From Verrucomicrobiota bacterium (GTDB lineage Bacteria; Verrucomicrobiota; Verrucomicrobiia; Limisphaerales; UBA11358): a stretch of DNA of 64,000 nucleotides. Made by a program: the position numbers and the translations under genes. Below are positions 15,100 to 50,242 of the stretch, one piece after another. How positions within the stretch are numbered: position 1 is the stretch's first letter; every line of letters starts with the position of its first letter. The DNA lies in NCBI GenBank assembly GCA_049509875.1, contig JBEKZM010000017.1:2529-66528 (forward strand), given 5' to 3'. A model generated the notes under the pieces. The model did not search any database. It was not told the origin of the DNA and saw nothing but the letters and a program-made list of their open reading frames with translations.

Positions 15100-15100
15100 G

Positions 15101-31791: not shown

Positions 31792-32220
31792 TCAGGGCGC
31801 GCCCTTCCCCGGCCAGAAATCCATGGTAATCGTGGTGCCTGCTCCCGGCGCCGATTCGATGTGAAAGTGATCCACCAAACTGCGCGAGCCAGGCAACCCT
31901 GATCCCAGCGTGCCAGCTTTGGCGTACTCCAAAAGCCGTTCCGGGTGCTCGATGCCCTTGCCCTTGTCCGACACGATGATACGTAGTCCGTGCTTGTCGC
32001 CCTCGGCAACCTGGCCAATTCGGATTTCTCCGGCACAGCCGGCGTGTTGAACCACATTGCGCGTGATTTCAGAAATCACCGTGGCGAGCCGCGTCAAAAT
32101 CGCAGGAGGAAAACCCATTTTAGTGGCCTCGTCCCGGCCCACGAATCGCGCCAAAAGCACGTCTTGCACCTTGGCAATTGGCAGGCGGGCCAGTTCAACC
32201 CAGATAATGTTTTCGTTCAT
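31792..32220 (-). CDS. RsbW/SpoIIAB-like anti-sigma-factor-type serine kinase (HATPase_c_2)
   Basis: N-box EITRNVVQHA, G1 SDKGKGI and G2 GSGLPGS are present in 142 aa. ATG 32220 is preceded by GGAG. The gene lies 13 nt after the upstream gene. Confidence 0.7.
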   Translation of the reverse strand: MNENIIWVELARLPIAKVQDVLLARFVGRDEATKMGFPPAILTRLATVISEITRNVVQHAGCAGEIRIGQVAEGDKHGLRIIVSDKGKGIEHPERLLEYAKAGTLGSGLPGSRSLVDHFHIESAPGAGTTITMDFWPGKGAP

Positions 32221-32233
32221 TGGTGGTGGCTCC

Positions 32234-33316
32234 TTAGGTTTCAAGCGGCACCAGCACGCTGACGGTTGTCGCATCAGCGCCCGATTCGATGGCGAATTCG
32301 CACCCATGCAGGCGGGCGGCGCCTTGGGCCAGCGCCAGCCCCAGCCCAAGTCCCTGCGGTTTTCTGCTGCCGCACCAGAACTGCTTGAAGGCGCCGATCC
32401 GCGAAATCTGGTCGGCGTTCATGCCCGCTCCGCGGTTGCCAATCGTCAAGGACCAGAATTCACGCTCCCCGCGGCCCTTGACCTCAATGGGCGTTCCCGG
32501 AGCGGAAAACTTGCAGGCGTTGTCCACCAGCTCTTCCACGAGCCAGACCAGGTATTCCTCACTGAAAGACAAATCAATTGGCTCACACGTGAGGGCGAGA
32601 TCTCTCTCCCGTTTCCAATTTCGGCAGACTTCCCGCGCTACACGATCGACCACGGTTCCGGCTGCGACGAGCTGTCCAGTTCTCACCAATTCAAAGCGAT
32701 TGGCGTAGAGCTGCGGCAGTTGGGCATAAAGATGGAGCCGCCGCATCATGCGCCGCAAACGCGCCGATTCCTGGACCACGGACTTATGCATCGCGGCGAC
32801 CTGGGTGTCCTGCCCGGCATATTTGAGCGCCAGCAAATTCGTGACGGTCGTGATCCGATCGAGCGTCTCCAAAACCTCCGACGGCACCGAGCCGGCCACC
32901 GCCAGGCTGACCTCTTCGGCGCGGAGACGATTTTCCTCAAGCTGGCGGTTCCGTTTCTCCAGGCGGCGGCGCACTGAGCCGATGAGCGCCTCTGGCTGGC
33001 AGGGTTTGGTGATGTAATCATCGGCGCCTGCCTCCATCCCGTGGCGCAGGTCGTCGTTGGCCACCAGCGCCGTGAGGAAGATAAATGGTATCATCGCCGT
33101 CCGCGGATTGTCCCGTACGGCTTGGAGGACCCCGAAACCATCCAAAAGCGGCATCATGATGTCGCAAAGGATGAGATCTGGAATCGAGTTAATCGCCGTC
33201 GCTGCTCCCAGCCTGCCGTTTTCGGCTTCGAGCGTCTCGAAACCTTCAAAACGGAAGATCTGGGCCATCTGCTTGCGAATGGCATCATCGTCTTCAATGA
33301 TCAATATTCTGTGCAT
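32234..33316 (-). CDS. Response-regulator receiver fused to a histidine-kinase-like DHp/HATPase module lacking the phospho-acceptor His
   Basis: REC domain: MHRILIIEDDD...LILCDIMMP...DYITKP. HATPase: LVDNACKFS...IGNRGAGM...GLGLGLALA. At the H-box position the sequence is PSEVLETL, where the paralogues have SHEFRTPL. Confidence 0.75.
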   Translation of the reverse strand: MHRILIIEDDDAIRKQMAQIFRFEGFETLEAENGRLGAATAINSIPDLILCDIMMPLLDGFGVLQAVRDNPRTAMIPFIFLTALVANDDLRHGMEAGADDYITKPCQPEALIGSVRRRLEKRNRQLEENRLRAEEVSLAVAGSVPSEVLETLDRITTVTNLLALKYAGQDTQVAAMHKSVVQESARLRRMMRRLHLYAQLPQLYANRFELVRTGQLVAAGTVVDRVAREVCRNWKRERDLALTCEPIDLSFSEEYLVWLVEELVDNACKFSAPGTPIEVKGRGEREFWSLTIGNRGAGMNADQISRIGAFKQFWCGSRKPQGLGLGLALAQGAARLHGCEFAIESGADATTVSVLVPLET

Positions 33317-35712
33317 ATAAATTTCTGTTGCTGGCTCTCCGCGTGCGACCGGGGTATTGTGATTGGTATTTCCACCCAGACAGTGGTTCCCGTGCCTTCC
33401 TGGCTTTCAAGCCGAATTGTGCCCCGATGCAGATCCACAAACTGTTTGACTATGGCCAGGCCCATGCCCGAGCCCGGACGGTTGCCGACATTCGCCGCGC
33501 GGTGAAAGGTCTGATAAAGCTTGGCGAGGTCGGCGGCCGGAATTCCGATGCCTGAATCGCTGACCTTAAATTCAAGGCGCGGTTCCGACGACGGATCAGG
33601 GTCGCCACCTGGCTGCGGACTCCCGCCAATCCGCTTCACTTCCAGCTTCACGGGTTGGCCATCGGAAGAATACTTGACCGCGTTGCTAAGAAGATTACCC
33701 AAGATGTGCCGTAAAATCTTCTCGTCAAGACAGGCTTCGCCCACGGCGGAGTCAACCTGGAGTTCGATGGTACGGGGTGAACCATCGGGGCTTTGCCCTT
33801 CCGCGATTATCCGCCGGCAAAGCGTCCCCACTTCCACCCGCGCCGGTTTGCATTCCATTTTGCCACTGGTGCAAACACCATGAACCAGGAAGTCAGTCAA
33901 CATCTTGGTCATGCGCCCAACGGCGCCGTGGATTTCCTTGAGTTGCTCAGACCGTTCGGCGTCAGTCATCGTTTGCCCATAACCGCCGAGCAAATCGGCA
34001 GCCATGGTGATAACGGACAAGGGGGTGCGGAACTCATGGGAAACCATGCTCACAAAGCGGCCCTTGATTTGGGATAACTTCTGCTCGTGCTCGAGCGCCA
34101 GGCGGGAACGCTCCTCCTTCTGCTTATGGTCGGCCAACTCCTCGGCAATCCGCCTGCGTTCGGTAATGTCGCGGGCAATACCGACCATGCCATTATAACC
34201 ACCTTTGTCGTCGAAAACGGGCGACTCAATCGTTTCAAACCAGCGGCTGCAGCCGACGGCATCCAGCACGCAGTTCTCGCTGCGGACAGGTTTCCCCGAG
34301 CTGATGACTTCACGGTCTCCATTGAAAAATTCAGCCGCGCGTTCTGGAAAAATCTCGGAGATCGTCCGGCCGATGAGGCTTTCCAGCGATTGACCAATAA
34401 TGCGGGCCAATGGCTCGTTGACGGCCAGATACCGTCCTTGGGCATCCTTGAGCCAGGCGGGATCGGGAATGTTATTGAGAATCTGCGTTTGCAGACGCTG
34501 GCTTGCGCGCAGGGCCTCCTCAGCCCGTTTGATCCGGCTGATGTCCTCTTTCACGGCGACATAATGGGTGATCCTGCCCTGATCATCCCGGAGGGGCGAG
34601 ATGGTGGCCGCTTCCCAGTAAAGCTCCCCGTTCTTCCGCCGGTTATGGAATTCGCCGCGCCACTCCTCGCCCGCAGCAAGGGTGGCCCACATTTGCCGGT
34701 AGGCTTCAGGCGGTTTATCACCTGATTTGAGCACCCGGGGGTTTTTCCCGCGCACTTCCGCGAAACTGTACCCAGAAACAGCACAAAACTTTGGATTGAC
34801 GTATTCGATCCCGCCGTTGAGATCAGTAATGACAATGGACACCGGACTTTGCTCCACTGCGCGTGAGAGTTTGCGCAATTGCGATTCGGCTCGTTTGCCT
34901 TCCGTAATGTCGCGGAACGTCCAGAGCCTGCCGTAGTAAGTGCCATCCGCGTGAATCACGGGTGACGTGCAACAGTCGAGCACCGTCCCGTCCTTAAGTT
35001 CGATTTCATCCCGGCTCATTTCGCTCGGGTGGGCGTAGAGATAGACGACTTTTTCAACAAACTTTTCGGGATTTTTTGTCCTGATCGAGGACCACACCAG
35101 CTGTTTCAGGTGGACGTTATCTTCCGTGCTGGGCGGAGGGAGCTTGAACAAATCGGACAACGCGCGGTTTTGCAGAAGAATCTTTCCCTGCTCGTCGGTG
35201 ACGAGGATTCCGTCAATCAACGTGTTCGCCTGGGCCTCTAGAAAGCCCGTTTTCCAGCGGAAAGCATCTTCCGCCTGCTGGCATTCGGTGACGTTTTCGA
35301 GGACCACCTCCTCGGCGCGAAGCAGGCTTTCCTGGATCTGGCGGTCTCGCTTTTCCAAGCGGCGGTTCACGGAGTCTAGTAGCGTCGCCGGCTGGTACGG
35401 CTTGGTAATGTAATCATCGGCCCCTTCGTCCATTCCATGACGCAGGTCCTGGATCGCACCCAGCGCGGTGAGGAAGATGAATGGTATCATCGCCGTCTTC
35501 GGACTTTCCCGCAAAGCTTGCAGAACGCCGAAGCCATCCAAATCCGGCATCATGATATCGCAAATGATGAGATCTGGAGGCGAGTCAATCGCCGCCGCCG
35601 CCCCCAGCCTGCCGTTTTCGGCTTCGTGTGTTTCGAAGCCTTCAAAGCGGAGCATCTGGGCCATCTGTTTGCGCATGATTGGCTCGTCTTCAATGATCAA
35701 TATTCTATGCAT
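33301..35712 (-). CDS. Hybrid sensor histidine kinase: N-terminal REC, three PAS domains, HisKA, HATPase
   Basis: REC: MHRILIIEDEP...DLIICDIMMPDLDG. PAS blocks are present (for example SIVITDLNGGIEYVNPKFCAVSGY). H-box SHEFRTPLSVI, N-box LGNLLSNAVKYS, G-boxes DSGIGIP and GSGMGLAIV. Confidence 0.85.
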   Translation of the reverse strand: MHRILIIEDEPIMRKQMAQMLRFEGFETHEAENGRLGAAAAIDSPPDLIICDIMMPDLDGFGVLQALRESPKTAMIPFIFLTALGAIQDLRHGMDEGADDYITKPYQPATLLDSVNRRLEKRDRQIQESLLRAEEVVLENVTECQQAEDAFRWKTGFLEAQANTLIDGILVTDEQGKILLQNRALSDLFKLPPPSTEDNVHLKQLVWSSIRTKNPEKFVEKVVYLYAHPSEMSRDEIELKDGTVLDCCTSPVIHADGTYYGRLWTFRDITEGKRAESQLRKLSRAVEQSPVSIVITDLNGGIEYVNPKFCAVSGYSFAEVRGKNPRVLKSGDKPPEAYRQMWATLAAGEEWRGEFHNRRKNGELYWEAATISPLRDDQGRITHYVAVKEDISRIKRAEEALRASQRLQTQILNNIPDPAWLKDAQGRYLAVNEPLARIIGQSLESLIGRTISEIFPERAAEFFNGDREVISSGKPVRSENCVLDAVGCSRWFETIESPVFDDKGGYNGMVGIARDITERRRIAEELADHKQKEERSRLALEHEQKLSQIKGRFVSMVSHEFRTPLSVITMAADLLGGYGQTMTDAERSEQLKEIHGAVGRMTKMLTDFLVHGVCTSGKMECKPARVEVGTLCRRIIAEGQSPDGSPRTIELQVDSAVGEACLDEKILRHILGNLLSNAVKYSSDGQPVKLEVKRIGGSPQPGGDPDPSSEPRLEFKVSDSGIGIPAADLAKLYQTFHRAANVGNRPGSGMGLAIVKQFVDLHRGTIRLESQEGTGTTVWVEIPITIPRSHAESQQQKFICTEY

Positions 35713-35726
35713 ATAAAATCCTGCTG

Positions 35727-37487
35727 CTAATTCGCCGTCTGGACTGGTCCAGCGGCCGGCAACTCCACCCACACCTTCGTTCCTTTCCCTTCTTCGGTCT
35801 CAAAACGAATCGTGCCCCCCAGCAGATCCACGAACTGCTTGACGATGGCCAGGCCCATGCCGGTCCCGGGGCGGTTGCCGACATTGGCCGCCCGGTGAAA
35901 GGTCTGATAGAGCTTGGGGAGGTCGGCCGCGGGAATTCCGATGCCCGAATCGCTGACCTTAAATTCAAGTCGGTGTTCCGACGACGGATCAGTTCCGCCA
36001 TTTGGCTGCGGACTGCCGCCAATCCGCTTCACTTCCAGCGTCACGGGGCGGCCATCGAAAGAATACTTGACCGCATTGCTGAGGAGATTACCGAGGATAT
36101 GCCTCAATATTTTATCGTCGAGCCAGGCTTCGCCCACGGCGGAGTCAACCTGCAGTTCGATGGTACGGGGCGAACCACCATGGCTTCGCCCTTCCGCGAT
36201 TATCCGCCGGCAAAGGGCCTCCACCTCCACCCAAGCGGGCTGGCACTCAATTTTCTTGCTCGCGCAATTGCCGTGGATGAGGAAGTCATTCATCATTTCA
36301 GTCATGCGCTCGACGGAGTTTCGGATTTCGTTGAGGTGCTCGGAACGCTCGGCTTCGGTCATCTTATCCAAGTAACCGTCCAGCAACTCGGCCGCCATGT
36401 TGATAACGGACAAGGGGGTGCGGAACTCATGCGAAACCAGGCTCACAAAACGGCTCTTGATCTGGGATGACTTTTGCTCGTGTTCGAGCGCCAGGCGGGC
36501 GCTTTCCTCATTCGCCTTGTGTTCGGCCAATTCCTGGGCGGTGCGTTTCTGTTCGGTAATATCGCTGGCTATGCCGGAGAGGCGAATCAGCTTGCCGGCG
36601 GCATCGCGGACTTGAAAACCACGGTCATGAATCCAGCGGATCGTGCCATCAGGACGGGCGACGCGATACTCGACGCTAACCTCCGGTGCGTCTCCCATGA
36701 GGGTAGTGAAAACGCCGAATACATGCTCACGTTCCTCGGGGAGGATCGCTTCAACCCATTGGTGCGGATTGGCGTACAAACTCTCCATCGAACGGTCCCA
36801 AATCAATTTATAACCCGCACTCACGTAGTGGATCGTTTTGAAGTCGGGTGAACATATCCAGAACACATCGGTGATGTTGTCCGCCAACTGGTGGAACTTC
36901 TCCTCGCTCTCGCGCGACGCCTCTTGGGCCCGCTTCCGTTCAGTGATGTCCTCGATGGTACCAACGCGACCGGTGGCTTCGCCACCCTCGGCAGGAATTG
37001 TCCGCGAACGAATCTGCGCCCAACGCTGGTCGCCACGCGTATTTACGAACCGAACCTCACGGATAAACTCCTGCCCTGCCTGCCGAGCACGGTCTCTTTC
37101 CTCCAAAAAGGCTGGCGCATCGTCGGGGTTCAGGGCGCGCTGCCACCCATCGCCCAGAGATTCCTCCGCCGTGAGACCGCTGATGTCTTGCCAGTACGAA
37201 TTCGTGTAAATGCAGCGGCCGGCGGCGTCCAATTCAAAGATGCCGATGGGCGAGCAAGCACTCAGGCTGCGGTAACGTTGTTCGCCGACCTCAAATTTCT
37301 TATGCGATGCGACCAGATCGGCGTTCGTGCGGGCCAATTCGCGTTGGAGATTGGCCAGTTCATTGTTGATGCGGCTCAACTCCTCGTAAAAGTGGTCGTC
37401 ACGGCGATTGAGCACCTGGCCGCTCGGGACCGGATCCTGTGCCGCAGCCAGGGGGGCGATGACGGGATTGGTGGTGTCCTGTTTCAT
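35727..37487 (-). CDS. Cytoplasmic PAS-PAS sensor histidine kinase
   Basis: There is an N-terminal coiled coil and two PAS domains (IGIFELDAAGRCIYTNSYW and VFWICSPDFKTIHYVSAGY). H-box SHEFRTPLSVI plus an HATPase domain. The start overlaps the stop of the B12-binding gene as ATGA. Confidence 0.85.
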   Translation of the reverse strand: MKQDTTNPVIAPLAAAQDPVPSGQVLNRRDDHFYEELSRINNELANLQRELARTNADLVASHKKFEVGEQRYRSLSACSPIGIFELDAAGRCIYTNSYWQDISGLTAEESLGDGWQRALNPDDAPAFLEERDRARQAGQEFIREVRFVNTRGDQRWAQIRSRTIPAEGGEATGRVGTIEDITERKRAQEASRESEEKFHQLADNITDVFWICSPDFKTIHYVSAGYKLIWDRSMESLYANPHQWVEAILPEEREHVFGVFTTLMGDAPEVSVEYRVARPDGTIRWIHDRGFQVRDAAGKLIRLSGIASDITEQKRTAQELAEHKANEESARLALEHEQKSSQIKSRFVSLVSHEFRTPLSVINMAAELLDGYLDKMTEAERSEHLNEIRNSVERMTEMMNDFLIHGNCASKKIECQPAWVEVEALCRRIIAEGRSHGGSPRTIELQVDSAVGEAWLDDKILRHILGNLLSNAVKYSFDGRPVTLEVKRIGGSPQPNGGTDPSSEHRLEFKVSDSGIGIPAADLPKLYQTFHRAANVGNRPGTGMGLAIVKQFVDLLGGTIRFETEEGKGTKVWVELPAAGPVQTAN

Positions 37488-38557
37488 GTGGCGATGGACT
37501 CGTTGGTGAGGCGATTGGCCAAAAGGATGGCCCCTTGGGCGTCAGGGGCAGAACCATCCGCCCCAATGATCTTCCAGAGGTCCGGATCGGTTTTAAAGGG
37601 ATAACCACCAACCAGGATTTTCACATGGCCGCAGTCGGGCGTGCGGCGCACGGCGGCAATGAGGGACTCGACCGCCCGGACATGATAGGTGATGGTGGCC
37701 GAAATGGCGAGGGCATCAGCCTGGCGTTGAACGAGGGCCTGGACCACGGCCGATCCGGGCATATTCGCGCCGAGATAATAGGTCTGCCAGCCATCCATCT
37801 CGAAGAAATCGCTCACCATGCGGGCGCCCATTTCATGGAGATCACCGGAAACGCAGGCGGCCACGAGCGCGCCGCGGGTTTTCTCACCGCCGAAGACGTA
37901 AGGATAGAGCTGGGACATGATGAGCTGGGTGGCAGCAGTGCAATAGTGTTCCTGGGCCACGCTGATCTGGTTCACCTGCCAGAGCCGTCCGATCTCATAT
38001 TGGGTGCGCTGGAAGACCTGAAGGTAGAGGTCGCGCACGGCGGTGCCCTGCCGGGCAGCGTCGAGGATCAGCTTGCTGGCTATATGCCGTTCCCCCCGGA
38101 GCAGCGCCTGCAGATATTGACCGGCCAGCGGCGCGAGCGCAGTGCCCTCAGCGATGAAGCCCGGCACGTCGTCTGCCAATTGCGGCAATTGCTGGAGTCC
38201 GCGGTCCAGGAAAACGCAGGCGAGCCGGCTAAACTCCGGCAGCAGTTCCCGCTGCAGGGATTCCTTCATGGTTTCGAGCAGACCCGCGAGGTCCATTGCC
38301 GGAATGCCGCGCTTGGCGAGCATGACCTTGGCCCAGCCAACGTAATCGCCGAACAACGCGGCGCTGTCGGCCGCGATTGCCTGCGCAAGATAGGCAAGAT
38401 GATAACCGGCGTCCTCGAGACATCGATCGCGCCCGGCCGTTCCGTAACGTTGTGCCAGTTCTGGATGGCGGACAAATTCGCGAGCCACCATGAGCGCAGC
38501 CAGAGCGGACCGCCGGTTGTCCAGCGTATCGCTGACCTGCTGGTTTAAGGAATTCAT
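37484..38557 (-). CDS. Stand-alone cobalamin (B12)-binding protein, CarH-type photoreceptor-like module without DNA-binding domain
   Basis: Four-helix B12-binding_2 segment with W193-x9-E203-H204 (GRLWQVNQISVAQEH, nt 37946-37981). Rossmann B12-binding domain with DxHxxG (GDLHEMG, nt 37826-37843). The ~170-aa helical N-terminal domain has no recognised family. Confidence 0.8.
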   Translation of the reverse strand: MNSLNQQVSDTLDNRRSALAALMVAREFVRHPELAQRYGTAGRDRCLEDAGYHLAYLAQAIAADSAALFGDYVGWAKVMLAKRGIPAMDLAGLLETMKESLQRELLPEFSRLACVFLDRGLQQLPQLADDVPGFIAEGTALAPLAGQYLQALLRGERHIASKLILDAARQGTAVRDLYLQVFQRTQYEIGRLWQVNQISVAQEHYCTAATQLIMSQLYPYVFGGEKTRGALVAACVSGDLHEMGARMVSDFFEMDGWQTYYLGANMPGSAVVQALVQRQADALAISATITYHVRAVESLIAAVRRTPDCGHVKILVGGYPFKTDPDLWKIIGADGSAPDAQGAILLANRLTNESIAT

Positions 38558-38563
38558 GCGCGT

Positions 38564-38998
38564 TCACGAGCAGATGTGCTCGAAATGGCGGACGTCCTGA
38601 GCCCCGGGCACGAGCTTCAAGCCTTGGGGAATGCCGTGGTGCGATTCGTGGTAAAGATGGCTGCGGTGCCAGAGCTTGAAGCTGCCGGCATCGGTCCAGT
38701 AAGTGACGAGCCAGATTTCCTCCGGTTTGTCCAGTGGACTGAGGACTTCCATACGCACGAAGCCGGGCTGATCATCCACCAAATGCGGGCGACGCCGGAA
38801 CGCTTCCTTGACCTCGGCCGTCTTGTCATTGGCGATGACAAATTTGCTGAGCACCACGAATGGGCCGGCCACCTTGGCGGAGCGCTCTGGCGGAGACACG
38901 GAAGGGGCCGGTCCGATGGCTTGGTGAAAAGGGCAGCCAGTGGCGCCGGAGGACGGCATTTCTATCTTCACGATTGGGGTGGATTCAGCGTTTGACAT
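38564..38998 (-). CDS. ABM-fold protein, IsdG/HmoA-like putative haem-degrading monooxygenase
   Basis: VVLSKFVIANDK...GFVRMEVL...WLVTYWTDAGSFKLWHRSHLYHESH aligns by eye with the Asn/Trp/His positions of IsdG. The N-terminal extension carries GCPFH, a Cys-Pro motif. Confidence 0.6.
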   Translation of the reverse strand: MSNAESTPIVKIEMPSSGATGCPFHQAIGPAPSVSPPERSAKVAGPFVVLSKFVIANDKTAEVKEAFRRRPHLVDDQPGFVRMEVLSPLDKPEEIWLVTYWTDAGSFKLWHRSHLYHESHHGIPQGLKLVPGAQDVRHFEHICS

Positions 38999-39025
38999 GG
39001 CAGGTTATTTTGTTAATTGGCGTCG

Positions 39026-41098: not shown

Positions 41099-41112
41099 TG
41101 GATTTTGATTGG

Positions 41113-42195: not shown

Positions 42196-42707
42196 ATTTT
42201 GGTCGCTCCCCGGGACAGCCATCTGTGCAGCACCTCGCCCGTTTGCGTATTGAACATGATTTTGCAGCCGCGGTTGCCGCCCACGCTCTGGGCCTTGATG
42301 CGAAACCGAGCCGCCTTGAGAAGGCGTCGCGCCATGGCGATATTGGCATGACCGATCGAGCGATCGCTATGGGAATCGCCGCCCAGGTCAACGACATTGC
42401 CGCCGCCGAACAATTTCACCTCCACCTCACTGGGCGGCAATCCGAGCCGGAAAAAACGCCCGGCCATCGCGGGGAGGGCGTCGCTCAGATAGCGGAAACG
42501 ACGGGCCGGCTCCGGGCCGGGCGGAATTTCCCCGTGCGGTTCCGGCAGCAGGGCGTGGCAGATGGCCGCCAGACGAAAGCGGGCATTGAACATCGTTACG
42601 GACACACAGGATCCGAGCAGGGTCAGAACCCATTGCGGTTCCTGCGTGACCAGCAACTCGCCGGGCTGCAATTGAACCTGCGGTATCGGAGGACCCGGTG
42701 GTTTCAT
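42192..42707 (-). CDS. cheD: Chemoreceptor glutamine deamidase
   Basis: [21 protein letters not shown] and [17 protein letters not shown]. There are ATGA overlaps at both ends. Confidence 0.85.
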
Positions 42708-43579
42708 AATGGTTTCCGGTACACGGCGGAAGCAATGCACTTCACCGGCAGTGTCAAGCCCGCCAGGGATTCAGAATGCCCCACGAAAAGATAGCCTCCG
42801 GGAACCAGATTCCGGCAGAGTTTGTGGATGACGGCTTCCTGGGTGGGCTTGTTAAAATAGATCATCACATTGCGAAAGAAAATCACGTCAAACATCTCCT
42901 TCACGCCATAATCCGCCGCCATGAAGTTCAGTCGGTGATAGGAGATTTTAGCCCGCAACTTCGGGATGATGCGCACCTGTTTTTGGGCCGGGTCTTTGCT
43001 GCGCAGCAAGTACTTGGTCCGCCAGGCCGGCGGCACGGGAATGACTCGTTCTTCGTCATAGATGCCAAGCTGGGCATGGTCGAGCACCTTGGTGGAAATG
43101 TCCGTGGCCAGCAGGGAAAAATCGAAGCCGGTCCGCACCTCGCCGAATTCACTTAGGACCATGGCCAGGGTGTAAGGCTCCTCGCCCGAGGAGCAGCCGG
43201 CACACCAGAGTTTCAAGCGCCAGGGCCGTTCAAGGGCGCCGGCGCGAGTCCTGGGATCCAGAGCCGGCAGTGCCGTCCGGGCCAGGTAGTCAAAGTGCTG
43301 AGACTCGCGGAAGAAGTCTGTCTTGTTGGTCGTGATGGCATTGATGAAATGCACGCGCTCTTCGTTGCCTTGGGCTGAGTCAAAGAGATAGCTCTGGTAT
43401 TGATCCAGCGTGCCCAGGCCCAGGGCCCGCAGCCGGCGTTGCAGCCGGCTTTGCAGCATGGGCAGCTTGGCGGGCGACATCGTGATGCCCAATTCCCCGG
43501 TGATGTATTTGCAGAATCGAGCCAGACTGTCGGCCGACAACCCCGGGGTCTCCAGCGTTTGCGGCACGGGGGAACTCAT
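42704..43579 (-). CDS. cheR: Chemotaxis protein methyltransferase
   Basis: TNKTDFFRE and WCAGCSSGEEPYTLAM (SAM-binding). The ORF is 291 aa. Confidence 0.9.
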   Translation of the reverse strand: MSSPVPQTLETPGLSADSLARFCKYITGELGITMSPAKLPMLQSRLQRRLRALGLGTLDQYQSYLFDSAQGNEERVHFINAITTNKTDFFRESQHFDYLARTALPALDPRTRAGALERPWRLKLWCAGCSSGEEPYTLAMVLSEFGEVRTGFDFSLLATDISTKVLDHAQLGIYDEERVIPVPPAWRTKYLLRSKDPAQKQVRIIPKLRAKISYHRLNFMAADYGVKEMFDVIFFRNVMIYFNKPTQEAVIHKLCRNLVPGGYLFVGHSESLAGLTLPVKCIASAVYRKPL

Positions 43580-43652
43580 GGGTTGCCTCCGGTCCAGTCA
43601 ACCGATGACCGTGTCGCCCGCACGCAGGCCCGGCTCTTAAGCATTTGGATTT

Positions 43653-44066
43653 TCATTGTTCAGTCGTCCGGCTTTCGTCGCCATTCCAGATATTTGCCCC
43701 ATAATTCTTGTCCAACGCCGCTTCGACCGCTGCAACCAACGACGTGCTTGAGAACGGTTTTCCCAATGAGATATCCGCGCCCAAACCGCGTGCCTCAGCG
43801 AACCTGTTCGATGGCGATTGGTAGGAGCTGATGGCGATGAACGGCACGTTAAGCTTCATCGCCCGCACCTTCCTCATGATCTCCAGCCCGTCCGGAGGTG
43901 GCATATGGATATCCGTGATCACCAGGTCCACGCGTTCCTTGCGTAGCATTTCCAGCGCTTCGGCTCCCGACGACATGGACCACACCTCGTGGGATTCTCG
44001 CCGGAGAACTGATTTCACGAAGGTGAGAACCGATTCCGAGTCGTCTATGACCAGGATTTTCGCCAT
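43653..44066 (-). CDS. Single-domain response regulator (CheY-like) with short C-terminal extension
   Basis: MAKILVIDDSESV...DLVITDIHMPPPDGLEI...LGKPF. Confidence 0.85.
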   Translation of the reverse strand: MAKILVIDDSESVLTFVKSVLRRESHEVWSMSSGAEALEMLRKERVDLVITDIHMPPPDGLEIMRKVRAMKLNVPFIAISSYQSPSNRFAEARGLGADISLGKPFSSTSLVAAVEAALDKNYGANIWNGDESRTTEQ

Positions 44067-44100
44067 GAGATGGCTTGCGTCTTGCGATTGGATCGGGCCT

Positions 44101-44610
44101 TTAAGCCGGAACTGCCGCGGCTTCGGCGGCAATCTCCGCGGTTTTCAGGAGCGCCGGGCCGGCCGAGGCAAAGACCCGGTTGATGTCGAGGATGATGATG
44201 AACTCATCACCTCGCCGGCCCATGCCCTGTATCAAGTCCGTGCGCCAGCGCATGGCGATGCGCGGGGGCGGATTGATCTGGCCGGCTTCCAGTTCGATGA
44301 CTTCATGCACGCTGTCGGCGATGCCGCCCAGGACCGTGGTCTCGCCATCGAGCTCCAGCTCCAACACGACGATGCGGCTGTTGATCGTGTCGGGCGTGGA
44401 AGGCAGGCCGAACTTAAGGCGCAGGTCCACCACGGGAATGGCTTTGCCGCGGACGTTGACCACGCCGCGCATGTAGTCGGGCGCGGTCGGCACCTTGGTG
44501 ATTTGGGGGAGCTCCAGCACTTCGCGCACCTGCGTGACGTTGATGGCGAACAGTTCGTCACCCAACTTGAAGGTGATATACTGTGCAGTTTCGTTAAAGG
44601 TCGTGCTCAT
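44101..44610 (-). CDS. cheW: Chemotaxis coupling protein CheW
   Basis: YITFKLGDELFAINVTQVREVLE...VNVRGKAIPVVDLRLKFG...IIILDINRVF. Confidence 0.9.
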   Translation of the reverse strand: MSTTFNETAQYITFKLGDELFAINVTQVREVLELPQITKVPTAPDYMRGVVNVRGKAIPVVDLRLKFGLPSTPDTINSRIVVLELELDGETTVLGGIADSVHEVIELEAGQINPPPRIAMRWRTDLIQGMGRRGDEFIIILDINRVFASAGPALLKTAEIAAEAAAVPA

Positions 44611-44630
44611 AGGCTCAAGTGCTGGGTGGC

Positions 44631-46730
44631 TTAGTAACTGGTGAACTCCTTGTCTTGAGCGTCGCCGTGGCCATTGCCATTACTTTTCCGGGGTTCGGCT
44701 CCCAAGTTGATGGCAACGGTGGCCGGTTTGGCGGCCCGGGGCTTCTCCATGTGCGATGGAGCGATCACCAATGGCTTCTTTCCATTCGCAGCGGGCTTCA
44801 TTGAAGGAGCGGCCTTGATGGAGGCACTGCTGCGTTTGGACGAGGCGTCGTCCATTTTAAAGAAACTGATGGATTGCTGGAGCTGTTCGGCCTGACTGGA
44901 CAACTCTTCGGAGGTGGAAGCCATTTCCTCCGAAGCGGAGGCGTTCTGCTGGATGACTTGGTCGAGTTGTTGAATGGCCTTGTTGACCTGGGAGGCGCCG
45001 GTGTTCTGTTCGGCGCTGGCGGCATTGATTTCCTGGACCAATTCGGCCGTCTTGCGGATGTCCGGCACCAGTTTGGTGAGCATTTCGCCCGCACCTTGGG
45101 CGACCCGGACGCCATCGGTGGCGAGTTTGGTGATTTCCGCGGCCGCACCCTGGCTGCGTTCGGCCAGCTTGCGCACTTCGCTGGCGACCACCGCAAAGCC
45201 TTTGCCGTGTTCGCCGGCCCGGGCGGCCTCGACGGCCGCATTGAGCGCGAGCAAGTCGGTCTTGCGGGCGATTTCTTCGATAATGTTGATCTTTTCCGCG
45301 ATTTCCTTCATTGCGGTCACCGTCTGTCCAACAGCCTCCCCGCTGGCCTTGGCATCTTCGGCGGCTTGGGAGGCCAGCTTGTCAGTCTGTTTGGCGTTGT
45401 CGGCATTTTGCTGGATGCTCGAAGTCATTTCCTCCATTGAAGAAGTCGTCTCCTCGGCGGAGGCCGCCTGCTCGGACGCGCCTTGAGAGAGTTGTTGGGC
45501 CGTGGCGCTCATCTCCTCGCTGCCTTGAGCGACGTTATTGGCGGCGCTGACGGTTTCACTGACGACGGTGCGTAACTTTTCGACCATTCCATTGAGCGCT
45601 TCCAAGGTCAGCCCGATTTCGTCCCGATTCTTGATTTCTGCCGTGCGGGTCAGATCGCCCCCGGCGACCGCCCCGGCCAATTGCGATGCCTGGTTCAAAG
45701 ATTTGATGATGTAGCTTAGCAGCCAAGTCGTGGTTCCCACGCCCACCAGGATGGCGGCGATCAGAATTCCGATCAGAAGATTCCGCGCCATGGCATATTC
45801 TTTGACTGCGGATTCCTTGGCCGCTGCCATTTCTTTATTATTCTTGTCAATGATGAATTCCAATGCCGCTTCGGAGGCGTCGGCGAGCTTGCGGCCGTTG
45901 CCGGTTGAAAGCTTCATGGCTTCCGAATTGCCATTTTCCATGGCGAGCCGGCTCACTTGGTCGTGAATATCGAGAAACTTGTTCCAAGCGGAGCGGAAAA
46001 GGGCCAGTTTGGCCTGTTCATCCGCGTTGGCGGCTTTGTCCAGTTCGGCCAAACGGGCGGTTATTTGCGTCTTGAGTTCCTCAATCTGCTTGGCTTGGGC
46101 CTCCATCGCCGTCTTGTCGGTTTCGATGATTAAGTTTTTTTCCGCCCGGTGGATGGCCAGCAAATTTTGTCCCGCGTGGGAGGCACTCAAAGCGGCTTGC
46201 ATCAGCTCAGGGGTCTCCTTCGCGCGCTTGGCAAACTGCGCTTCGAGGTCCGACAGAATGGCTTCAGCCGCATCCAGCGCGTTGCGACCCTCGGTTTTGG
46301 AAAGCGCCTGCGCCCGCACATTCGAATTGAGCAAGGCAAGCTCACTCACTTTTTTGTGATTTTCCTTGAACTGCTGCCATTGGTCCGCAAATTCCTTTAC
46401 TTTGGCTTTGCCTTCGCCAGTAGCCAATGCGTCGAGCTTTTGCCGGCTTTCCTCCAAGGCCGCCATATAAATGTCAATGTTCGCGGCTTGTTGATTCTTA
46501 CCCTCGACGGTGTCATCCAAAATCATGTTCTTCTCCCCCCGGCAGACTTTCAAGAATTGCTGGTCAATCTCTCCGGCCAACTCAACCTTGGCGGCATTGT
46601 TATCGACAATGGTATTGAGCTGTTCGTTAATGGTGCTGAGTTTCTTGATCCCCAGCACCGCCGAGACCGTCAGCATGCCCAGCACGACGGTGAAACCGAG
46701 AATGAGTTTTGTTTTTATTGTTAATTTCAT
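44631..46730 (-). CDS. Methyl-accepting chemotaxis protein with large helical (HBM/double 4HB-like) periplasmic domain, HAMP and MCP signalling domain
   Basis: TM1 (LILGFTVVLGMLTVSAVLGI), a ~300-aa Lys/Ala/Glu-rich helical ectodomain and TM2 are present. The tip is [35 protein letters not shown]. The C-terminus is ...KEFTSY. Confidence 0.9.
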   Translation of the reverse strand: MKLTIKTKLILGFTVVLGMLTVSAVLGIKKLSTINEQLNTIVDNNAAKVELAGEIDQQFLKVCRGEKNMILDDTVEGKNQQAANIDIYMAALEESRQKLDALATGEGKAKVKEFADQWQQFKENHKKVSELALLNSNVRAQALSKTEGRNALDAAEAILSDLEAQFAKRAKETPELMQAALSASHAGQNLLAIHRAEKNLIIETDKTAMEAQAKQIEELKTQITARLAELDKAANADEQAKLALFRSAWNKFLDIHDQVSRLAMENGNSEAMKLSTGNGRKLADASEAALEFIIDKNNKEMAAAKESAVKEYAMARNLLIGILIAAILVGVGTTTWLLSYIIKSLNQASQLAGAVAGGDLTRTAEIKNRDEIGLTLEALNGMVEKLRTVVSETVSAANNVAQGSEEMSATAQQLSQGASEQAASAEETTSSMEEMTSSIQQNADNAKQTDKLASQAAEDAKASGEAVGQTVTAMKEIAEKINIIEEIARKTDLLALNAAVEAARAGEHGKGFAVVASEVRKLAERSQGAAAEITKLATDGVRVAQGAGEMLTKLVPDIRKTAELVQEINAASAEQNTGASQVNKAIQQLDQVIQQNASASEEMASTSEELSSQAEQLQQSISFFKMDDASSKRSSASIKAAPSMKPAANGKKPLVIAPSHMEKPRAAKPATVAINLGAEPRKSNGNGHGDAQDKEFTSY

Positions 46731-46738
46731 GTTTTCTA

Positions 46739-48850
46739 TCAGTTGTGAGCGACCGGATTTGAGGACGCAGCGGTTAATTTGTTGTGTGTTTTAGTAGAAC
46801 GATCCGAATCCCAGACCGACATGGTCGTGTCCGCACGGTTCGGCTGCTCGCCCGCCATGCGAACGAGCCCAGCCAAATCGAGGATGAGCGCGACCCGACC
46901 GTCGCCCATGATGGTGGCGCCGGAAACGAGGTCGATGTGGTGATAAAATTTGCCGAGCGGCTGGATGACGGTTTGGTGGCTTCCCACCACGCGGTCCACA
47001 ACCAAGCCGACGCGATCCTCGCCATGGCGTGCGATCACGATCTTTTCGATCTCCGGTTCCGCGCCAGCGATGGCGAAGGTTTCGCGCAGGAGCACGTAAG
47101 GCACGAGCTCGCCGCGCACGGCAATGACGTTGCGGCCATTGTTACGACCACGGTCGGACCGCTGGAGTTCCACATTTTCGGTCACCACCGACATCGGAAC
47201 GATGAACTGGTCGCGGCCAATTTCGACGAGCAGTCCGTCAATGATGGCGAGCGTCAGCGGCAGCGTCAGCGTGATCGTGGTGCCCTGGCCCGCCTTGCTG
47301 GAGAGGGCGACCCGGCCGCGCAGGGCCTCGAACTGCCGCTTGACGACGTCCATGCCGACACCCCGACCGGAAACATTCGTGATTTTTTCGGCCGTGGAAA
47401 AGCCGGGCCGGAAAATAAGCTCATACATTTCCGGCTCGGAAAGCCTGGCGTCGGCAGCGATCAATCCTTTTTCAACCGCCTTGGCGCGGACGGCCTCCGC
47501 ATCAATTCCCCGTCCATCATCGGTGATGGTAATGACGACGTTCGAGCCGACGTGAGCCGCGGCGAGGCGGATGGTGCCGCGGCGCGACTTGGCGGCCGCG
47601 GTGCGCGTTTCGGGCACTTCGATGCCGTGATCGATGCTGTTGCGGATGAGATGAACCAGCGGATCACCGAGTTGGTCGAGCACGGTCTTGTCGAGTTCCG
47701 TGTCCTCTCCCTCAGTGACCAGGTCGATTTCCTTGCCCAATTCGGCGGACAGGTCATGCACCAGCCGCTTGAACCGGTTGAAGGTGGCGCCGATGGGCAT
47801 CATCCGGATGCCCAGAACGTTGTCACGCAACTCGTCTACCAGGCGCTCCAAATCCTCCACCGGCGCGGCGAGGTCCGGCAGCTTGGCAGCGGCGGCCACC
47901 TGCGAGAGGCGCGATTGGTTCATCACCAGTTCGCCGACGAGATTCACGAGGCGGTCGAGCCGTTCGGAGGGAACACGAACACTGGAATCTCTCGAAGAAA
48001 GCCTATGCGACGGCGCGGCTGCCGCTGGCTGGGTGACCGGCTTCTCCGGCGCGGCGGCGGAAACGGGCGGCGGAGTGGAAGTGGCGGGGTTAGCCCTAGC
48101 TGGGGTGGAAACCCCGGCGGCTGCAATTTTGATCTCGCTACCGTCTTCCACGAACATGAACACGTCCTTGATCGAGTTGAGTCCCCGGCTCGTGGCGAGG
48201 GTGATATCCCACGCAAAATAACACTGGTCGGGCTGAAGCTGCTCCAGCGGCGGCACGGCGCCGGCATCGGCCGTGATCCGGCAATTGCCGAGCTCGCGCA
48301 GCTCGTTTAGCAACGCGATGGGATTCGTGCCCGCCACCATCAGGCCGGGCGAAGGGCGAAAATGAATTTCATAGGTTTGAGCGGGCGCAGGGTTGGCGGG
48401 CTCGGACGGCCTCGAAGCTTTAGTTTGGTGCACCGGAGAGCCGTTCTGTTCCGCCGCGTGGGTGGATGGCAGGCACCCGTTCAAAGCCGTCACAATATCC
48501 GCGCCGGCGGCGACCGGGGCAGGTTGATTGCTTTGCGCAGCGTCTAATAATGCCTTGATATGGTCCTTCGACCGGAGTATGAGACCGATGAGTTCTTTCG
48601 AGAGGGGAACGCGGCCTTCGCGGACTAGATCCAAAACTGACTCCACATGGTGCGTGAACTCCGCAACCGTGTCGAAACCAAACATGCCACCTGAACCCTT
48701 GAGCGTGTGAAACGCGCGAAACAGAGGATTGATGAGATCGTTCGCCGCCCCGCCGGCATCAAGCTCCAAGGAAATCTCCTCGATGCGGAGCAACAGCTCT
48801 TCTGCTTCGGTGAGGAAGACTTGGACTGGATCGGGCTGGCTTGAGTTCAT
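46739..48850 (-). CDS. cheA: Chemotaxis histidine kinase CheA
   Basis: Hpt domain FRAFHTLKGSGGMFGF. Kinase core DPLVHLIRNSIDHGIE, DDGRGID, GRGVGMDVVK. A C-terminal CheW-like domain is present. Confidence 0.9.
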   Translation of the reverse strand: MNSSQPDPVQVFLTEAEELLLRIEEISLELDAGGAANDLINPLFRAFHTLKGSGGMFGFDTVAEFTHHVESVLDLVREGRVPLSKELIGLILRSKDHIKALLDAAQSNQPAPVAAGADIVTALNGCLPSTHAAEQNGSPVHQTKASRPSEPANPAPAQTYEIHFRPSPGLMVAGTNPIALLNELRELGNCRITADAGAVPPLEQLQPDQCYFAWDITLATSRGLNSIKDVFMFVEDGSEIKIAAAGVSTPARANPATSTPPPVSAAAPEKPVTQPAAAAPSHRLSSRDSSVRVPSERLDRLVNLVGELVMNQSRLSQVAAAAKLPDLAAPVEDLERLVDELRDNVLGIRMMPIGATFNRFKRLVHDLSAELGKEIDLVTEGEDTELDKTVLDQLGDPLVHLIRNSIDHGIEVPETRTAAAKSRRGTIRLAAAHVGSNVVITITDDGRGIDAEAVRAKAVEKGLIAADARLSEPEMYELIFRPGFSTAEKITNVSGRGVGMDVVKRQFEALRGRVALSSKAGQGTTITLTLPLTLAIIDGLLVEIGRDQFIVPMSVVTENVELQRSDRGRNNGRNVIAVRGELVPYVLLRETFAIAGAEPEIEKIVIARHGEDRVGLVVDRVVGSHQTVIQPLGKFYHHIDLVSGATIMGDGRVALILDLAGLVRMAGEQPNRADTTMSVWDSDRSTKTHNKLTAASSNPVAHN

Positions 48851-48858
48851 GGGCAGGA

Positions 48859-49224
48859 TTAAGGCAGTAATTTCTTGGCTACCATCACGAGTTGTTCAAT
48901 GCGGAACGGCTTGACGATCCAGCCGCTTGCGCCCGCCGCCCGTCCGGCTTGTTTTTTGGCGTCCTGCGATTCGGTCGTGAGCATGACGATGGGAATGTAT
49001 TTGCATTGCGGCAGCGCGCGAACCTGGCGAATCAATTCGATTCCGTCCATGTTTGGCATGTTCAGGTCGGTAATGAGCATGTGCGGAGCACTGCTGGAGA
49101 TCTTGGCGAGTGCGTCCTGCCCGTCCACCGCCTCAACGACGTCATAGCCGGCGTTGCGAAGCGTGAAGCTGACCAATTGGCGAATGCTGGCCGAATCATC
49201 GGCCGTCAGAATGGTTTGGCTCAT
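48859..49224 (-). CDS. cheY: Single-domain response regulator CheY
   Basis: MSQTILTADDSASIR...MLITDLNMPNMDGIELI...GASGWIVKPF. 121 aa. It lies 8 nt upstream of cheA. Confidence 0.85.
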   Translation of the reverse strand: MSQTILTADDSASIRQLVSFTLRNAGYDVVEAVDGQDALAKISSSAPHMLITDLNMPNMDGIELIRQVRALPQCKYIPIVMLTTESQDAKKQAGRAAGASGWIVKPFRIEQLVMVAKKLLP

Positions 49225-49228
49225 GGGC

Positions 49229-49537
49229 TTAAGCGGGCAATGGCTGCAAGGCTTGAGGCGGCAAACCAAGGAGTTCAGCGCATTGATCAATTGCCGGAGC
49301 AGGCGCGTGAATGGAAAAAGCTTTGCCAGCGGCAAGCGCGCTGCGACGAGCTGCCACGAGCAATTGAATGCCCGCTGCGTCGCAGGTTTCAACACGACTG
49401 CAATCTAATTCGAGGCCATGTTCACCCGCGAGATGCTCGGTTAATGCGTGGCGCACCGCGTCGCCATTATAAATGTCCAAATCACCGGCAAACCGAACGG
49501 TGTTCGTTTCTCGCTGCAATATAATTTCGAGTTTCAT
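49229..49537 (-). CDS. STAS-domain protein (anti-sigma-factor-antagonist fold), first gene of the chemosensory operon
   Basis: MKLEIILQRETNTVRFAGDLDIYNGDAVRHAL...LELDCSRVETCDAAGIQLLVAARR. At the position of the DS[ST]G phospho-serine motif the sequence is DAAG. Confidence 0.7.
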   Translation of the reverse strand: MKLEIILQRETNTVRFAGDLDIYNGDAVRHALTEHLAGEHGLELDCSRVETCDAAGIQLLVAARRSALAAGKAFSIHAPAPAIDQCAELLGLPPQALQPLPA

Positions 49538-49953: not shown

Positions 49954-50242
49954 CTTGTACGCATAGGACGCTCGCGCGCCACCGGTGATATTGGTTGCAC
50001 CGCAAGATTGTTGGCCAGCGCGTTCATTCATATGTTTGTCGTAGTAACTATCGGCAATTCAATACAATACTGTAATCTATTGAGACCGAGCTTGTGCGAT
50101 ATGTCTCAATTGGATTCATTGCTCTTTTAAATGCCAACGGGTTTGCCAGGCACGAAGCCTGGCTTACTATAACGCACAAAATCCGGGCAGCCCGAAGCGT
50201 GGGTTGCGCCTCGGCGCCGCGCGGAATTCTTGAATCCTTTAC

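Follow-up and report, generated by a model that had tools for sequence, protein, structure and literature searches.

A cluster of 16 genes on the minus strand, at positions 31792-49537 of a 64,000-nucleotide (nt) stretch of contig JBEKZM010000017.1 from a metagenome-assembled genome of a soil Verrucomicrobiota bacterium (the whole stretch analyzed is hereafter referred to as the window), combines a chemosensory (Che) core with light-sensor, histidine kinase and RsbT-like genes. We conclude that its backbone, consisting of the Che core, a 690-residue protein related to methyl-accepting chemotaxis proteins (MCPs; this protein is hereafter referred to as X690), a sensor histidine kinase (HK), a receiver (REC) protein with a His-less kinase-like part (HK3) and an RsbT-like ATPase, is conserved in Verrucomicrobiota and Acidobacteriota. 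On balance, we consider the locus to be one tightly packed unit of four evolutionary modules, in which a relay responding to light and to PAS-sensed cues is tied to the Che array. The first module would be a core of the F8/F7 type, with a CheS-like STAS protein, CheY, CheA, a 34H MCP with two transmembrane (TM) segments, CheW, a second CheY-like REC protein, CheR, CheD and CheB. The second would be X690, a soluble, McpA-like divergent MCP and a standing member of such Che clusters. The third would be a variable sensor-kinase slot, occupied here by HK2 and by a photocobilin cassette made up of an IsdG-like protein predicted to bind or degrade haem, a photoglobin-B12 photoreceptor and the coupled kinase HK1. 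The fourth would be the conserved terminal pair, with HK3 as a response regulator with a His-less kinase-like output, followed by the RsbT-like ATPase of the Ser/Thr-kinase type.

All 16 open reading frames (ORFs) start with ATG and are free of internal stops. Successive spacings calculated from their coordinates (4, 8, 8, 20, 34, 73, -4, -4, 14, 27, 6, -4, 14, -16 and 13 nt) reproduced exactly the ORFs and the series given in the original prediction, which had been made from the letters of the sequence and had proposed a single tight co-directional unit. Gene order and spacing support that proposal, stop and start codons overlap across the borders between modules, and, judging from the spacing, the unit is probably one transcript. 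Pfam confirmed nearly all of the earlier domain assignments across the 16 genes. Promoter-like and terminator-like matches within the cluster occurred at chance level in a promoter and terminator scan, with none in the intergenic gaps. A sigma-70-like hexamer pair, TTAGCA-17-TAGAAT (9/12), lies at 35702-35730 on the minus strand, exactly at the HK1/HK2 junction; such sites total the chance level and this one may be meaningless.

The arrangement recurs in other genomes. A scan for relatives of X690 returned 168 stretches, from which 79 loci were kept (individual loci are given below as L numbers), originating from Verrucomicrobiota, Acidobacteriota, Desulfobacterota, Nitrospirota, Syntrophorhabdus, Zixibacteria, Calditrichia and Rhodospirillaceae. 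Among 78 X690 loci, CheA was present in 61 and a close CheY in 59, and the gene immediately downstream of X690 encoded CheY in 40 cases, a STAS protein in seven and CheA in seven; by its gene neighborhoods, the X690 family is a family of Che-cluster proteins. The closest Che core, that of an Opitutaceae metagenome-assembled genome (L004), has the order STAS-CheY-CheA-MCP-CheW-CheR-CheD-CheB-X690-(REC-PAS-HK)-HK3-RsbT followed by a convergent gene, with 12 of the 16 window genes present in the same order at 56-90% identity. L089 reads CheW-CheR-CheD-CheB-X690-(4HB/PAS HK)-HK3-RsbT; the set X690-HK-HK3-RsbT-STAS is found in L088 between the CheR-REC and CheY-CheA genes of a different Che type; L085 reads X690-RsbT-STAS-CheY-CheA; and the Acidobacteriota loci (L087, L010-L013) have the order STAS-CheY-CheA-X690-HK-REC-HK-HK3-RsbT. 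The slot for the sensor kinase contained PAS, 4HB-PAS, REC-PAS or photocobilin-plus-PAS kinases. The synteny across loci thus identifies a conserved backbone of Che core, X690, sensor HK, HK3 and RsbT-like gene, with a variable sensor-kinase slot. The link between Che core and kinase block, for which a comparison of genomes had been proposed, recurs in L004, L089, L088 and the Acidobacteriota locus L087. Throughout, the direct observations concern which genes are present, which domains they encode, which motifs are conserved and which gene orders recur.

The kinase block comprises the last four genes of the unit:

35727..37487, minus strand: HK1, a PAS-PAS-HisKA-HATPase kinase (586 amino acids, aa; Pfam) with the H-box SHEFRTPL and an ATGA overlap with the B12 gene
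33301..35712, minus strand: HK2, a kinase with REC, three PAS, HisKA and HATPase domains (803 aa; Pfam) and the H-box SHEFRTPL
32234..33316, minus strand: HK3, a REC domain followed by a His-less DHp-like helix and HATPase_c (360 aa; Pfam), overlapping HK2 by 16 nt
31792..32220, minus strand: an RsbT/RsbW-type single-domain GHKL ATPase (142 aa), the last gene (HATPase_c_2, 2e-10; 41.2 bits against a cut-off of 27.4 bits)

HK3 gave no Pfam match to HisKA. Of 13 homologues, 12 have S, A, Q, P or R at the H-box position and one (L006) has His, and the true REC-kinases of L015 and L047 have His at this position of the HK3 alignment. The phospho-acceptor His is thus missing from HK3 and 12 of its 13 homologues, and its earlier description as a REC-pseudokinase was correct. 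HK3 homologues located beside X690-family genes share 46-79% identity and are always preceded by a HisKA kinase. HK3 would most simply be the cognate response regulator of that preceding kinase, and CheA is no more likely than the adjacent HisKA kinases to serve as phosphodonor for the kinase-borne REC domains. The REC domains of HK2 and HK3 share 76% identity, and the PAS-kinase part of HK2 shares 53% identity with HK1. HK2 appears to have arisen recently as a chimera of an HK3-like REC and an HK1-like core; relatives hold a single kinase of 1000-1100 aa in this slot.

The N, G1 and G2 boxes of the RsbT-like ATPase are readable. Its family is tight (275 clusters, 70-91% identity) and bears the JGI name RsbT, and the window protein scores under all NCBIfam equivalog cut-offs. 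Its best sequence match in the PDB is the CA domain of a histidine kinase (E 0.03), with no close solved relative. A 4-nt overlap joins the RsbT-like gene of L085 and L088 to a STAS gene in which the Ser of the phospho-site is retained. The STAS gene of the window lies at the other end of the unit:

49229..49537, minus strand: STAS-only protein (102 aa; Pfam STAS_2, 5.9e-17), the first gene, in the position of CheS or of an "anti-sigma antagonist"
49370..49381, minus strand: residues D53-A54-A55-G56 of the STAS protein, placed by profile alignment onto D-S58-S-G of SpoIIAA

Direct BLASTP of the window STAS protein against SpoIIAA gave no alignment and the family profile was used instead; it matched TM1442 at 9e-13 and SpoIIAA at 8e-11. 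With a family-specific hidden Markov model, a STAS ORF was found in 61 fetched loci, most commonly in the order X690-STAS-CheY-CheA. The phospho-site column contains Leu or Val in most loci, and Thr or Ser in several clusters bearing an RsbT-like gene (L004, L085/L088 and Acidobacteriota loci). The STAS gene tracks cheY-cheA and not the RsbW-like gene, as most of the 61 loci have no RsbT-like gene and L002, L005, L080 and L086 have an RsbT-like gene and no STAS gene. The split partner-switching parts of the original prediction are doubtful here, because the STAS gene tracks cheY-cheA and the window protein has Ala at the phospho-site.

This bears directly on the model to which those parts belonged, in which CheA would phosphorylate the kinase-borne receivers, and the STAS and RsbW-like proteins, as a split partner switch, would free a sigma factor, such that light or haem signals and chemoreceptor signals would meet at transcription. 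The model has a precedent in Shewanella, in which che1 is co-transcribed with McpA, CrsA (STAS) and CrsR (a REC-PP2C-anti-sigma kinase) controlling RpoS (PMC9855816), and F7 stage 1 clusters bear a STAS protein and a Ser phosphatase (PMC7184735). It would be consistent with the STAS gene overlapped by the RsbT-like gene in L085 and L088, and with Thr or Ser at the phospho-site in the RsbT-bearing L004, L085 and Acidobacteriota loci, but not with the Ala in the window, the separate distribution of STAS and RsbT-like genes, the lack of a PP2C phosphatase and of a sigma factor in the window, or the constant position of a HisKA kinase, the more usual donor, before HK3. We therefore give this model a small chance, and prefer a relay in which HK1 and HK2 are the donors.

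The light input of that relay would lie in the two genes between X690 and HK1:

38564..38998, minus strand: IsdG-family-like ABM protein (144 aa; ABM, 5.7e-13)
37484..38557, minus strand: photocobilin-like protein (357 aa; hereafter referred to as the B12 protein), with an N-terminal photoglobin domain, B12-binding_2 and B12-binding (Pfam, PDB search)
37946..37981, minus strand: W-x9-EH motif WQVNQISVAQEH, residues 193-204 of the B12 protein, aligned with W61/E71/H72 of SasPcob
37826..37843, minus strand: DLHEMG (DxHxxG), residues 239-244 of the B12 protein, the His-on lower-ligand motif, aligned with His108 of SasPcob

The best solved relatives of the B12 protein are the photocobilins SasPcob (8J2W, 8J2X; E 1.5e-31) and AbPcob (8J2Y). 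SasPcob aligned with the B12 module and, separately, its C-terminal globin domain aligned with residues 32-97, placing D49 and W75 on the biliverdin-contacting Asp270 and Trp296 (with an offset of +6, checked on W61, E71, H72 and H108). The Pfam Phycobilisome model matched the protein weakly (E 1.3e-3). More than 3800 homologues were found, and W-x9-EH and DLHEMG are kept across phyla; both CarH-type photoreceptor motifs, W-x9-EH (named in the original prediction) and DxHxxG, are present. The nearest PDB relatives of the ABM protein were TT1380 (the best, a hypothetical ABM protein) and then the haem degraders HmoB, MhuD and IsdI. The Trp and the haem-ligand His of the Asn/Trp/His triad are kept, and the NCBIfam HmuQ model matched at 1.4e-7, under its cut-off. 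The N-terminal extension of most photocobilin-linked ABM partners, that of the window included, contains a GCPFHQ Cys-Pro motif resembling a haem-regulatory motif, which is missing from the Pyrinomonadaceae copy.

Taken together, these features identify the pair as a light-sensor cassette of the photocobilin/photoglobin type, with chromophore binding predicted from the aligned residues. The original prediction of a stand-alone Wx9EH cobalamin module and an IsdG-like protein was right as regards the motifs; the pair is instead a cassette of this type, which is widespread on its own. A haem-oxygenase gene can be paired with a bacteriophytochrome gene, and by analogy the ABM protein may supply bilin to the B12 protein. 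Both domain orders have been described for photocobilins, stand-alone members work through protein-protein contacts, and a survey of photoglobins has catalogued operons with histidine kinases, STAS proteins and ABM monooxygenases (PMC10979010, PMC8717448). We did not find a photocobilin cassette inside a Che-linked relay described in the literature. The pair was absent from all 79 related loci. In the close relatives L080 and L081, the order is X690-ABM-B12-HK-HK3-RsbT; the pair lies beside a PAS-HisKA_3 kinase and a LuxR-type regulator in L082 (Verrucomicrobiota), and alone in L083/L084 (Pyrinomonadaceae). We read it, on the basis of this distribution, as a putative mobile photoreceptor cassette, inserted in a lineage-specific manner in the variable sensor-kinase slot.

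The mobility of this pair, which accompanies LuxR-type regulators in L082 and stands by itself in L083, would also be expected if the locus were a juxtaposition of independent systems (a motility Che pathway, a two-component system responsive to light, and a kinase pair distinct from both) sharing only a transcript or a neighborhood. The X690-HK-HK3-RsbT genes without nearby che genes in L080 and L086, and the presence of X690-family genes beside at least two different types of Che cluster, are consistent with such a juxtaposition. However, X690-HK-HK3-RsbT is repeatedly attached to or inside Che clusters in two phyla and with different Che types, X690 itself belongs to a family of Che-cluster proteins, and stop/start overlaps cross the module borders in the window. 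We consider independent systems improbable, and retain the reading of a single unit, in which X690 is the protein expected to join the relay to the array:

39026..41098, minus strand: X690, a soluble, all-helical, divergent MCP-like protein (family profiles, AlphaFold2 model)
40220..40255, minus strand: X690 residues 282-293, QCQDITRQRIEH, the family-invariant QxxDxxxQxxxH with its DxxxQ core
39743..39802, minus strand: X690 residues 433-452, LNAQVFAIRTPAGATLEVLA, a degenerate MCP hairpin tip (invariant N434; the MCPsignal matches of distant members span the region)
39296-39325, minus strand: X690 residues 592-601, the block (R)YTMxSERxxH just before the disordered tail (Y592, T593, M594, E597 and H601 invariant in 75 sequences)
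39029..39043, minus strand: the C-terminal NVELF of X690, which ends a disordered Pro-rich linker of ~80 aa

X690 is 100% identical to NCBI locus ABSH48_08110 and its own sequence has no Pfam or NCBIfam match. At thresholds of E≤1e-3 and E≤1e-30, the family numbers 3226 and 509 representatives, respectively, and 54 of 75 members have an MCPsignal match that passes or approaches the threshold (best E 1.7e-21), so the earlier label of MCP-like for the 690-aa protein is right. The AlphaFold2 model (predicted local distance difference test, pLDDT, of 78) is helical throughout, with helix-turn-helix turns at residues 441-445 that coincide with the MCP-tip-like LNAQVFAIRTPAGATLEVLA. The pLDDT falls below 50 over residues 608-690, and the protein ends in LGDNVELF. 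No TM segment, sensor domain or methylation consensus was found in X690. In 75 sequences with a mean identity of 22%, Q282, D285, Q289, H293, N434, Y592, T593, M594, E597, H601 and F690 are invariant; the first motif reads QFHDITRQ in most members and QCQDITRQ in the window protein. The C-terminus N[VI][ED]LF is kept in ~75 of 79 homologues. The contig of L016 (Methylomirabilota) bears two tandem X690-family genes (115-1710 and 2151-4217, plus strand) before CheY-CheA.

The McpA-like receptors PA0180, VCA1088 and SO_2117 have no assignable heptad class, lack xWxxF and carry Val at position 2, preventing the binding of CheR; the endings listed are EVELF, DIELF, EIELF and TVELF, and this strikingly conserved C-terminus has a role called "unclear" (PMC7184735). 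X690 has in common with these receptors (PA0180/CttP, VCA1088 and SO_2117) the x[VIL][ED]LF C-terminus in place of xWxxF, and is best filed as a putative soluble relative or analogue of them, likened by published traits. A tblastn search of plasmids for annotated gamma-proteobacterial McpA genes, with an X690-family query, gave no match. PDB profile searches with the whole family and with the motif region alone yielded only coiled-coil noise, with neither CheZ nor MCPs; Foldseek comparison of the X690 model with the PDB returned SMC proteins, pore-forming toxins and MCPs at similarly weak scores and did not discriminate between them. No meaningful hhalign alignment was obtained between the X690 family and the cluster MCP.

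DxxxQ is the receiver-phosphatase motif of CheZ and, with a preceding His, matches the H-box of HisKA_3 kinases. An hhalign comparison set the X690 motif on the active-site helix of CheZ (P 0.005-0.011, probability <10%), with D285 and Q289 on D143 and Q147 of the E. coli CheZ sequence. The Pfam CheZ model matched 22 of 75 family members, all below the gathering score (best E 6e-4). Membership of the CheZ family fails on these sub-threshold Pfam matches and on the lack of CheZ in the PDB profile searches, and a CheZ-like mechanism is proposed as a hypothesis suggested by the motif. The idea of the RsbT-like protein as the catalytic domain for an HDxxxQ "DHp" in X690 was rejected, because the His-bearing members have no RsbT-like gene and the members with an RsbT-like gene have Gln.

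With these reservations, it is conceivable, if rather unlikely, that the X690/McpA-like family constitutes an unrecognized array-associated receiver phosphatase or tether, functionally analogous to CheZ. The MCP-like tip would dock to CheA/CheW, the invariant DxxxQ (HDxxxQ in most members) would dephosphorylate CheY~P or the HK3 receiver, and the NVELF peptide, tethered by the linker, would capture the receiver. If true, this would account for the conserved "unclear" C-terminus of McpA in the F7 clusters of Pseudomonas, Vibrio and Shewanella, would show how Che cores without CheZ, CheC or CheX end their signals and, in this lineage, would link the Che array to a light-gated kinase, a pseudokinase and an RsbT relay. 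That X690 is a degenerate soluble chemoreceptor feeding CheA like any MCP, its motifs being structural rather than catalytic or tethering, appears very improbable: it would fit the MCPsignal matches in 54 of 75 members, the MCP-like hairpin tip, the MCPs among the generic coiled coils returned by Foldseek and the signaling units formed by Shewanella McpA with CheA3 (PMC9855816), but not the lack of a sensor domain, TM segment and methylation consensus, the invariance of the polar Q282, D285, Q289 and H293 and of the YTMxSERxxH block at 22% mean identity, or a strictly conserved terminal peptide on a disordered linker, the P. aeruginosa McpA peptide being reported to bind no CheR (PMC7184735).

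Returning to the unit as a whole, we infer the phosphotransfer steps, chromophore binding, the output and the role of X690 as follows. Light would act on HK1 through the adenosylcobalamin-binding (and possibly also bilin-binding) protein, and PAS-sensed cues would act on HK2. The phosphorylation state of the HK3 receiver, and of the HK2 receiver that is almost identical to it, would be determined by HK1 and HK2, and HK3 would control the RsbT-like ATPase, the target of which may be the STAS protein or an unlinked partner. The connection of this relay to the Che array and CheY would be made by X690, whether by physical contact or by catalysis, and would involve the MCP-like tip, the DxxxQ motif and the tethered C-terminal peptide of that protein.

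Several observations weigh against this scheme. The X690-HK-HK3-RsbT block is found in L080 and L086 with no che genes in the DNA upstream (3.3 kb to the contig end and 10 kb, respectively), so the relay can occur apart from a Che core. The photocobilin pair, too, can sit with unrelated two-component genes (L082) or alone (L083), and the catalytic Asn of IsdG is replaced by Ser in all four cassette ABM partners. In the window STAS protein, Ala54 aligns with Ser58, the residue that is phosphorylated in SpoIIAA. Neither a PP2C phosphatase nor a sigma factor was found among the scanned window ORFs, and their genes could lie elsewhere in the genome. X690 has no TM segment, unlike PA0180 and VCA1088, its likeness to them being judged from published traits, and CheZ was not recovered in the PDB profile searches with the whole family or the motif region alone, leaving the CheZ relationship statistically unsupported.

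The Che core consists of the STAS gene described above and the following genes:

48859..49224, minus strand: CheY (121 aa; Response_reg, 2.1e-26), with readable acceptor Asp, Thr and Lys
46739..48850, minus strand: CheA (703 aa), with Hpt, H-kinase_dim, HATPase and CheW domains (Pfam; NCBIfam CheA at 4e-138, under the equivalog cut-off)
44631..46730, minus strand: transmembrane MCP (699 aa), with a sensor of two 4HB_MCP domains, HAMP, MCPsignal and a 34H signaling domain
44101..44610, minus strand: CheW (169 aa; CheW, 2.3e-37)
43653..44066, minus strand: second single-domain receiver (137 aa; Response_reg, 2.7e-23)
42704..43579, minus strand: CheR (291 aa; CheR_N and CheR)
42192..42707, minus strand: CheD (171 aa; CheD, 2.9e-20), with an ATGA overlap with cheR
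41113..42195, minus strand: CheB (360 aa; REC and methylesterase), with an ATGA overlap with cheD

The MCP had been described as of the HBM type; it is an MCP, in which Pfam finds two 4HB_MCP domains, HAMP and MCPsignal, and the HBM model itself gave no match. Two TM segments and four sites with the methylation consensus were identified in it. Its entire cytoplasmic domain aligned with that of E. coli Tsr (36H), each arm carrying a single 7-residue deletion; with one heptad missing per arm relative to the 36H Tsr, it belongs to the 34H class. Receptors of F8 systems are of the 34H class with two TM segments, and the CheABR analysis places F8 together with F7 (PMC7184735). The 34H two-TM receptor and cheD point to an F8/F7-like core, an assignment based on receptor heptads and gene order, CheA, CheB, CheR and CheW having been viewed with generic Pfam and NCBIfam models only. 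The 34H receptor thus indicates the F8/F7 clade instead of the alternative-cellular-function class proposed earlier. The gene for the second receiver is missing from L004. The second type of Che cluster (L085, L088, L087 and L001) has a 600-aa multi-CheW protein and a HEAT_2-repeat gene between cheB and cheR, with an HDOD gene after cheA in L085 and L088; this is a second Che class that also recruits X690.

The cluster is flanked downstream by a convergent MBL-fold gene. The features of its upstream side, and one more distant gene, are:

50182-50196, minus strand: terminator-like hairpin, 3' of the upstream gene for an outer membrane protein (OMP)-like product
50243-51607, minus strand: OMP-beta-barrel-like protein, upstream, co-directional and parted from the cluster by the hairpin
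51677-53326, minus strand: a further sCache_2/dCache MCP, directly on the upstream side, co-directional and also parted from the cluster by the hairpin
21144-22202, plus strand: an isolated T2SSF gene (platform protein of the GspF/PilC type), ~10 kb away from the cluster

The hairpin is likely to be the 5' limit of the cluster unit. No Pfam matches to flagellar proteins, CheZ, CheC or CheX were found in the window, in agreement with what had been stated for them; the accompanying claim that pilus genes were absent does not hold strictly, given the lone T2SSF gene, beside which no other genes for type II secretion (T2SS) or type IV pili were seen among the window ORFs scanned. Rfam detected no cobalamin riboswitch or other RNA near the cluster, and no tRNAs were found in the tRNA search. 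At the very start of the window, Rfam identified a group-II-D1D4-6 catalytic intron RNA (7-254, minus strand; 104 bits, full model length). At 11573-15931 (plus strand), a gene for a circularly permuted ATP-grasp + Alpha-E protein lies near one for a transglutaminase-like protein; it is unrelated to the cluster.

The closest known systems are the ancestral F7 stage 1 clusters of gamma-proteobacteria and the che1-McpA-CrsA-CrsR locus of Shewanella oneidensis. The F7 stage 1 order is anti-sigma antagonist, cheY, cheA, cheW, cheW, aer2, cheR, cheD, cheB, mcpA-like, antagonist and serine phosphatase, and no function has yet been assigned to stage 1-2 F7 systems (PMC7184735). The window has the parallel order STAS-cheY-cheA-...-cheR-cheD-cheB-McpA-like, with proteins of the partner-switch type after it; the genes are tightly packed in all of these systems (co-transcription having been shown in Shewanella), and their function is non-flagellar or unknown. 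The receptor of the window is 34H with two TM segments (F8-like), whereas F7 stage 1 has the soluble 36H Aer2, and PAS kinases, a REC-pseudokinase and a separate RsbT-like ATPase take the place of the STAS protein and REC-PP2C-anti-sigma kinase (CrsA/CrsR) of Shewanella. The window differs further in having no PP2C, an McpA-like protein without TM segments, an inserted photocobilin cassette, and hosts in Verrucomicrobiota and Acidobacteriota. By position, the STAS protein is likened to CheS of Sinorhizobium meliloti and Agrobacterium fabrum; the gene for CheS, likewise a STAS-only protein, immediately precedes cheY-cheA, and its cluster also encodes CheD and two receivers of the CheY type.

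The individual parts show similar mixtures of likeness and difference. The B12 protein shares with the photocobilins (SasPcob, AbDPcob; 8J2W, 8J2X, 8J2Y) the B12-binding Rossmann domain, the four-helix bundle, W-x9-EH and DxH, and a globin-like domain with residues matching Asp270/Trp296; both are stand-alone, the known ones acting on partner enzymes. Unlike that of SasPcob, its globin domain is N-terminal, as in the described permuted group, and, unlike those of known photocobilins, its gene, the stop of which overlaps the start of the PAS kinase, is strictly paired with one for an IsdG-like ABM protein. X690 has in common with the DxxxQ proteins CheZ and HisKA_3 a D...Q pair on a long helix of a helical-bundle protein and a gene beside cheY, and with CheZ a conserved acidic-hydrophobic peptide at the end of a flexible linker; unlike CheZ, it gives no significant profile match, is three times longer and carries an MCP-like signaling tip. 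The RsbT-like ATPase shares with the RsbT, RsbW and SpoIIAB Ser kinases a single HATPase_c_2 domain with N, G1 and G2 boxes, and is translationally coupled to STAS in sister loci; its constant neighbor is the REC-pseudokinase, and not a sigma factor or PP2C phosphatase as in RsbW-type systems.

The original prediction knew of no described system that combines these parts. Che genes with STAS, anti-sigma kinase or phosphatase and McpA-like proteins have already been described (PMC7184735, PMC9855816), and most of the parts are of known kinds, while this exact combination and three of its conserved proteins are not known to have been studied. The locus and its relatives define a conserved trio of McpA-like protein, REC-pseudokinase and RsbT-like ATPase, and the variable sensor-kinase slot beside them can take a B12/bilin photoreceptor cassette, which would let light enter a Che-linked relay. 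QxxDxxxQxxxH, YTMxSERxxH and the terminal NVELF are concrete targets for mutation, also in the tractable Pseudomonas, Vibrio and Shewanella. Set beside the known systems, the locus and its relatives extend the ancestral F7/F8-type Che architecture to Verrucomicrobiota and Acidobacteriota.

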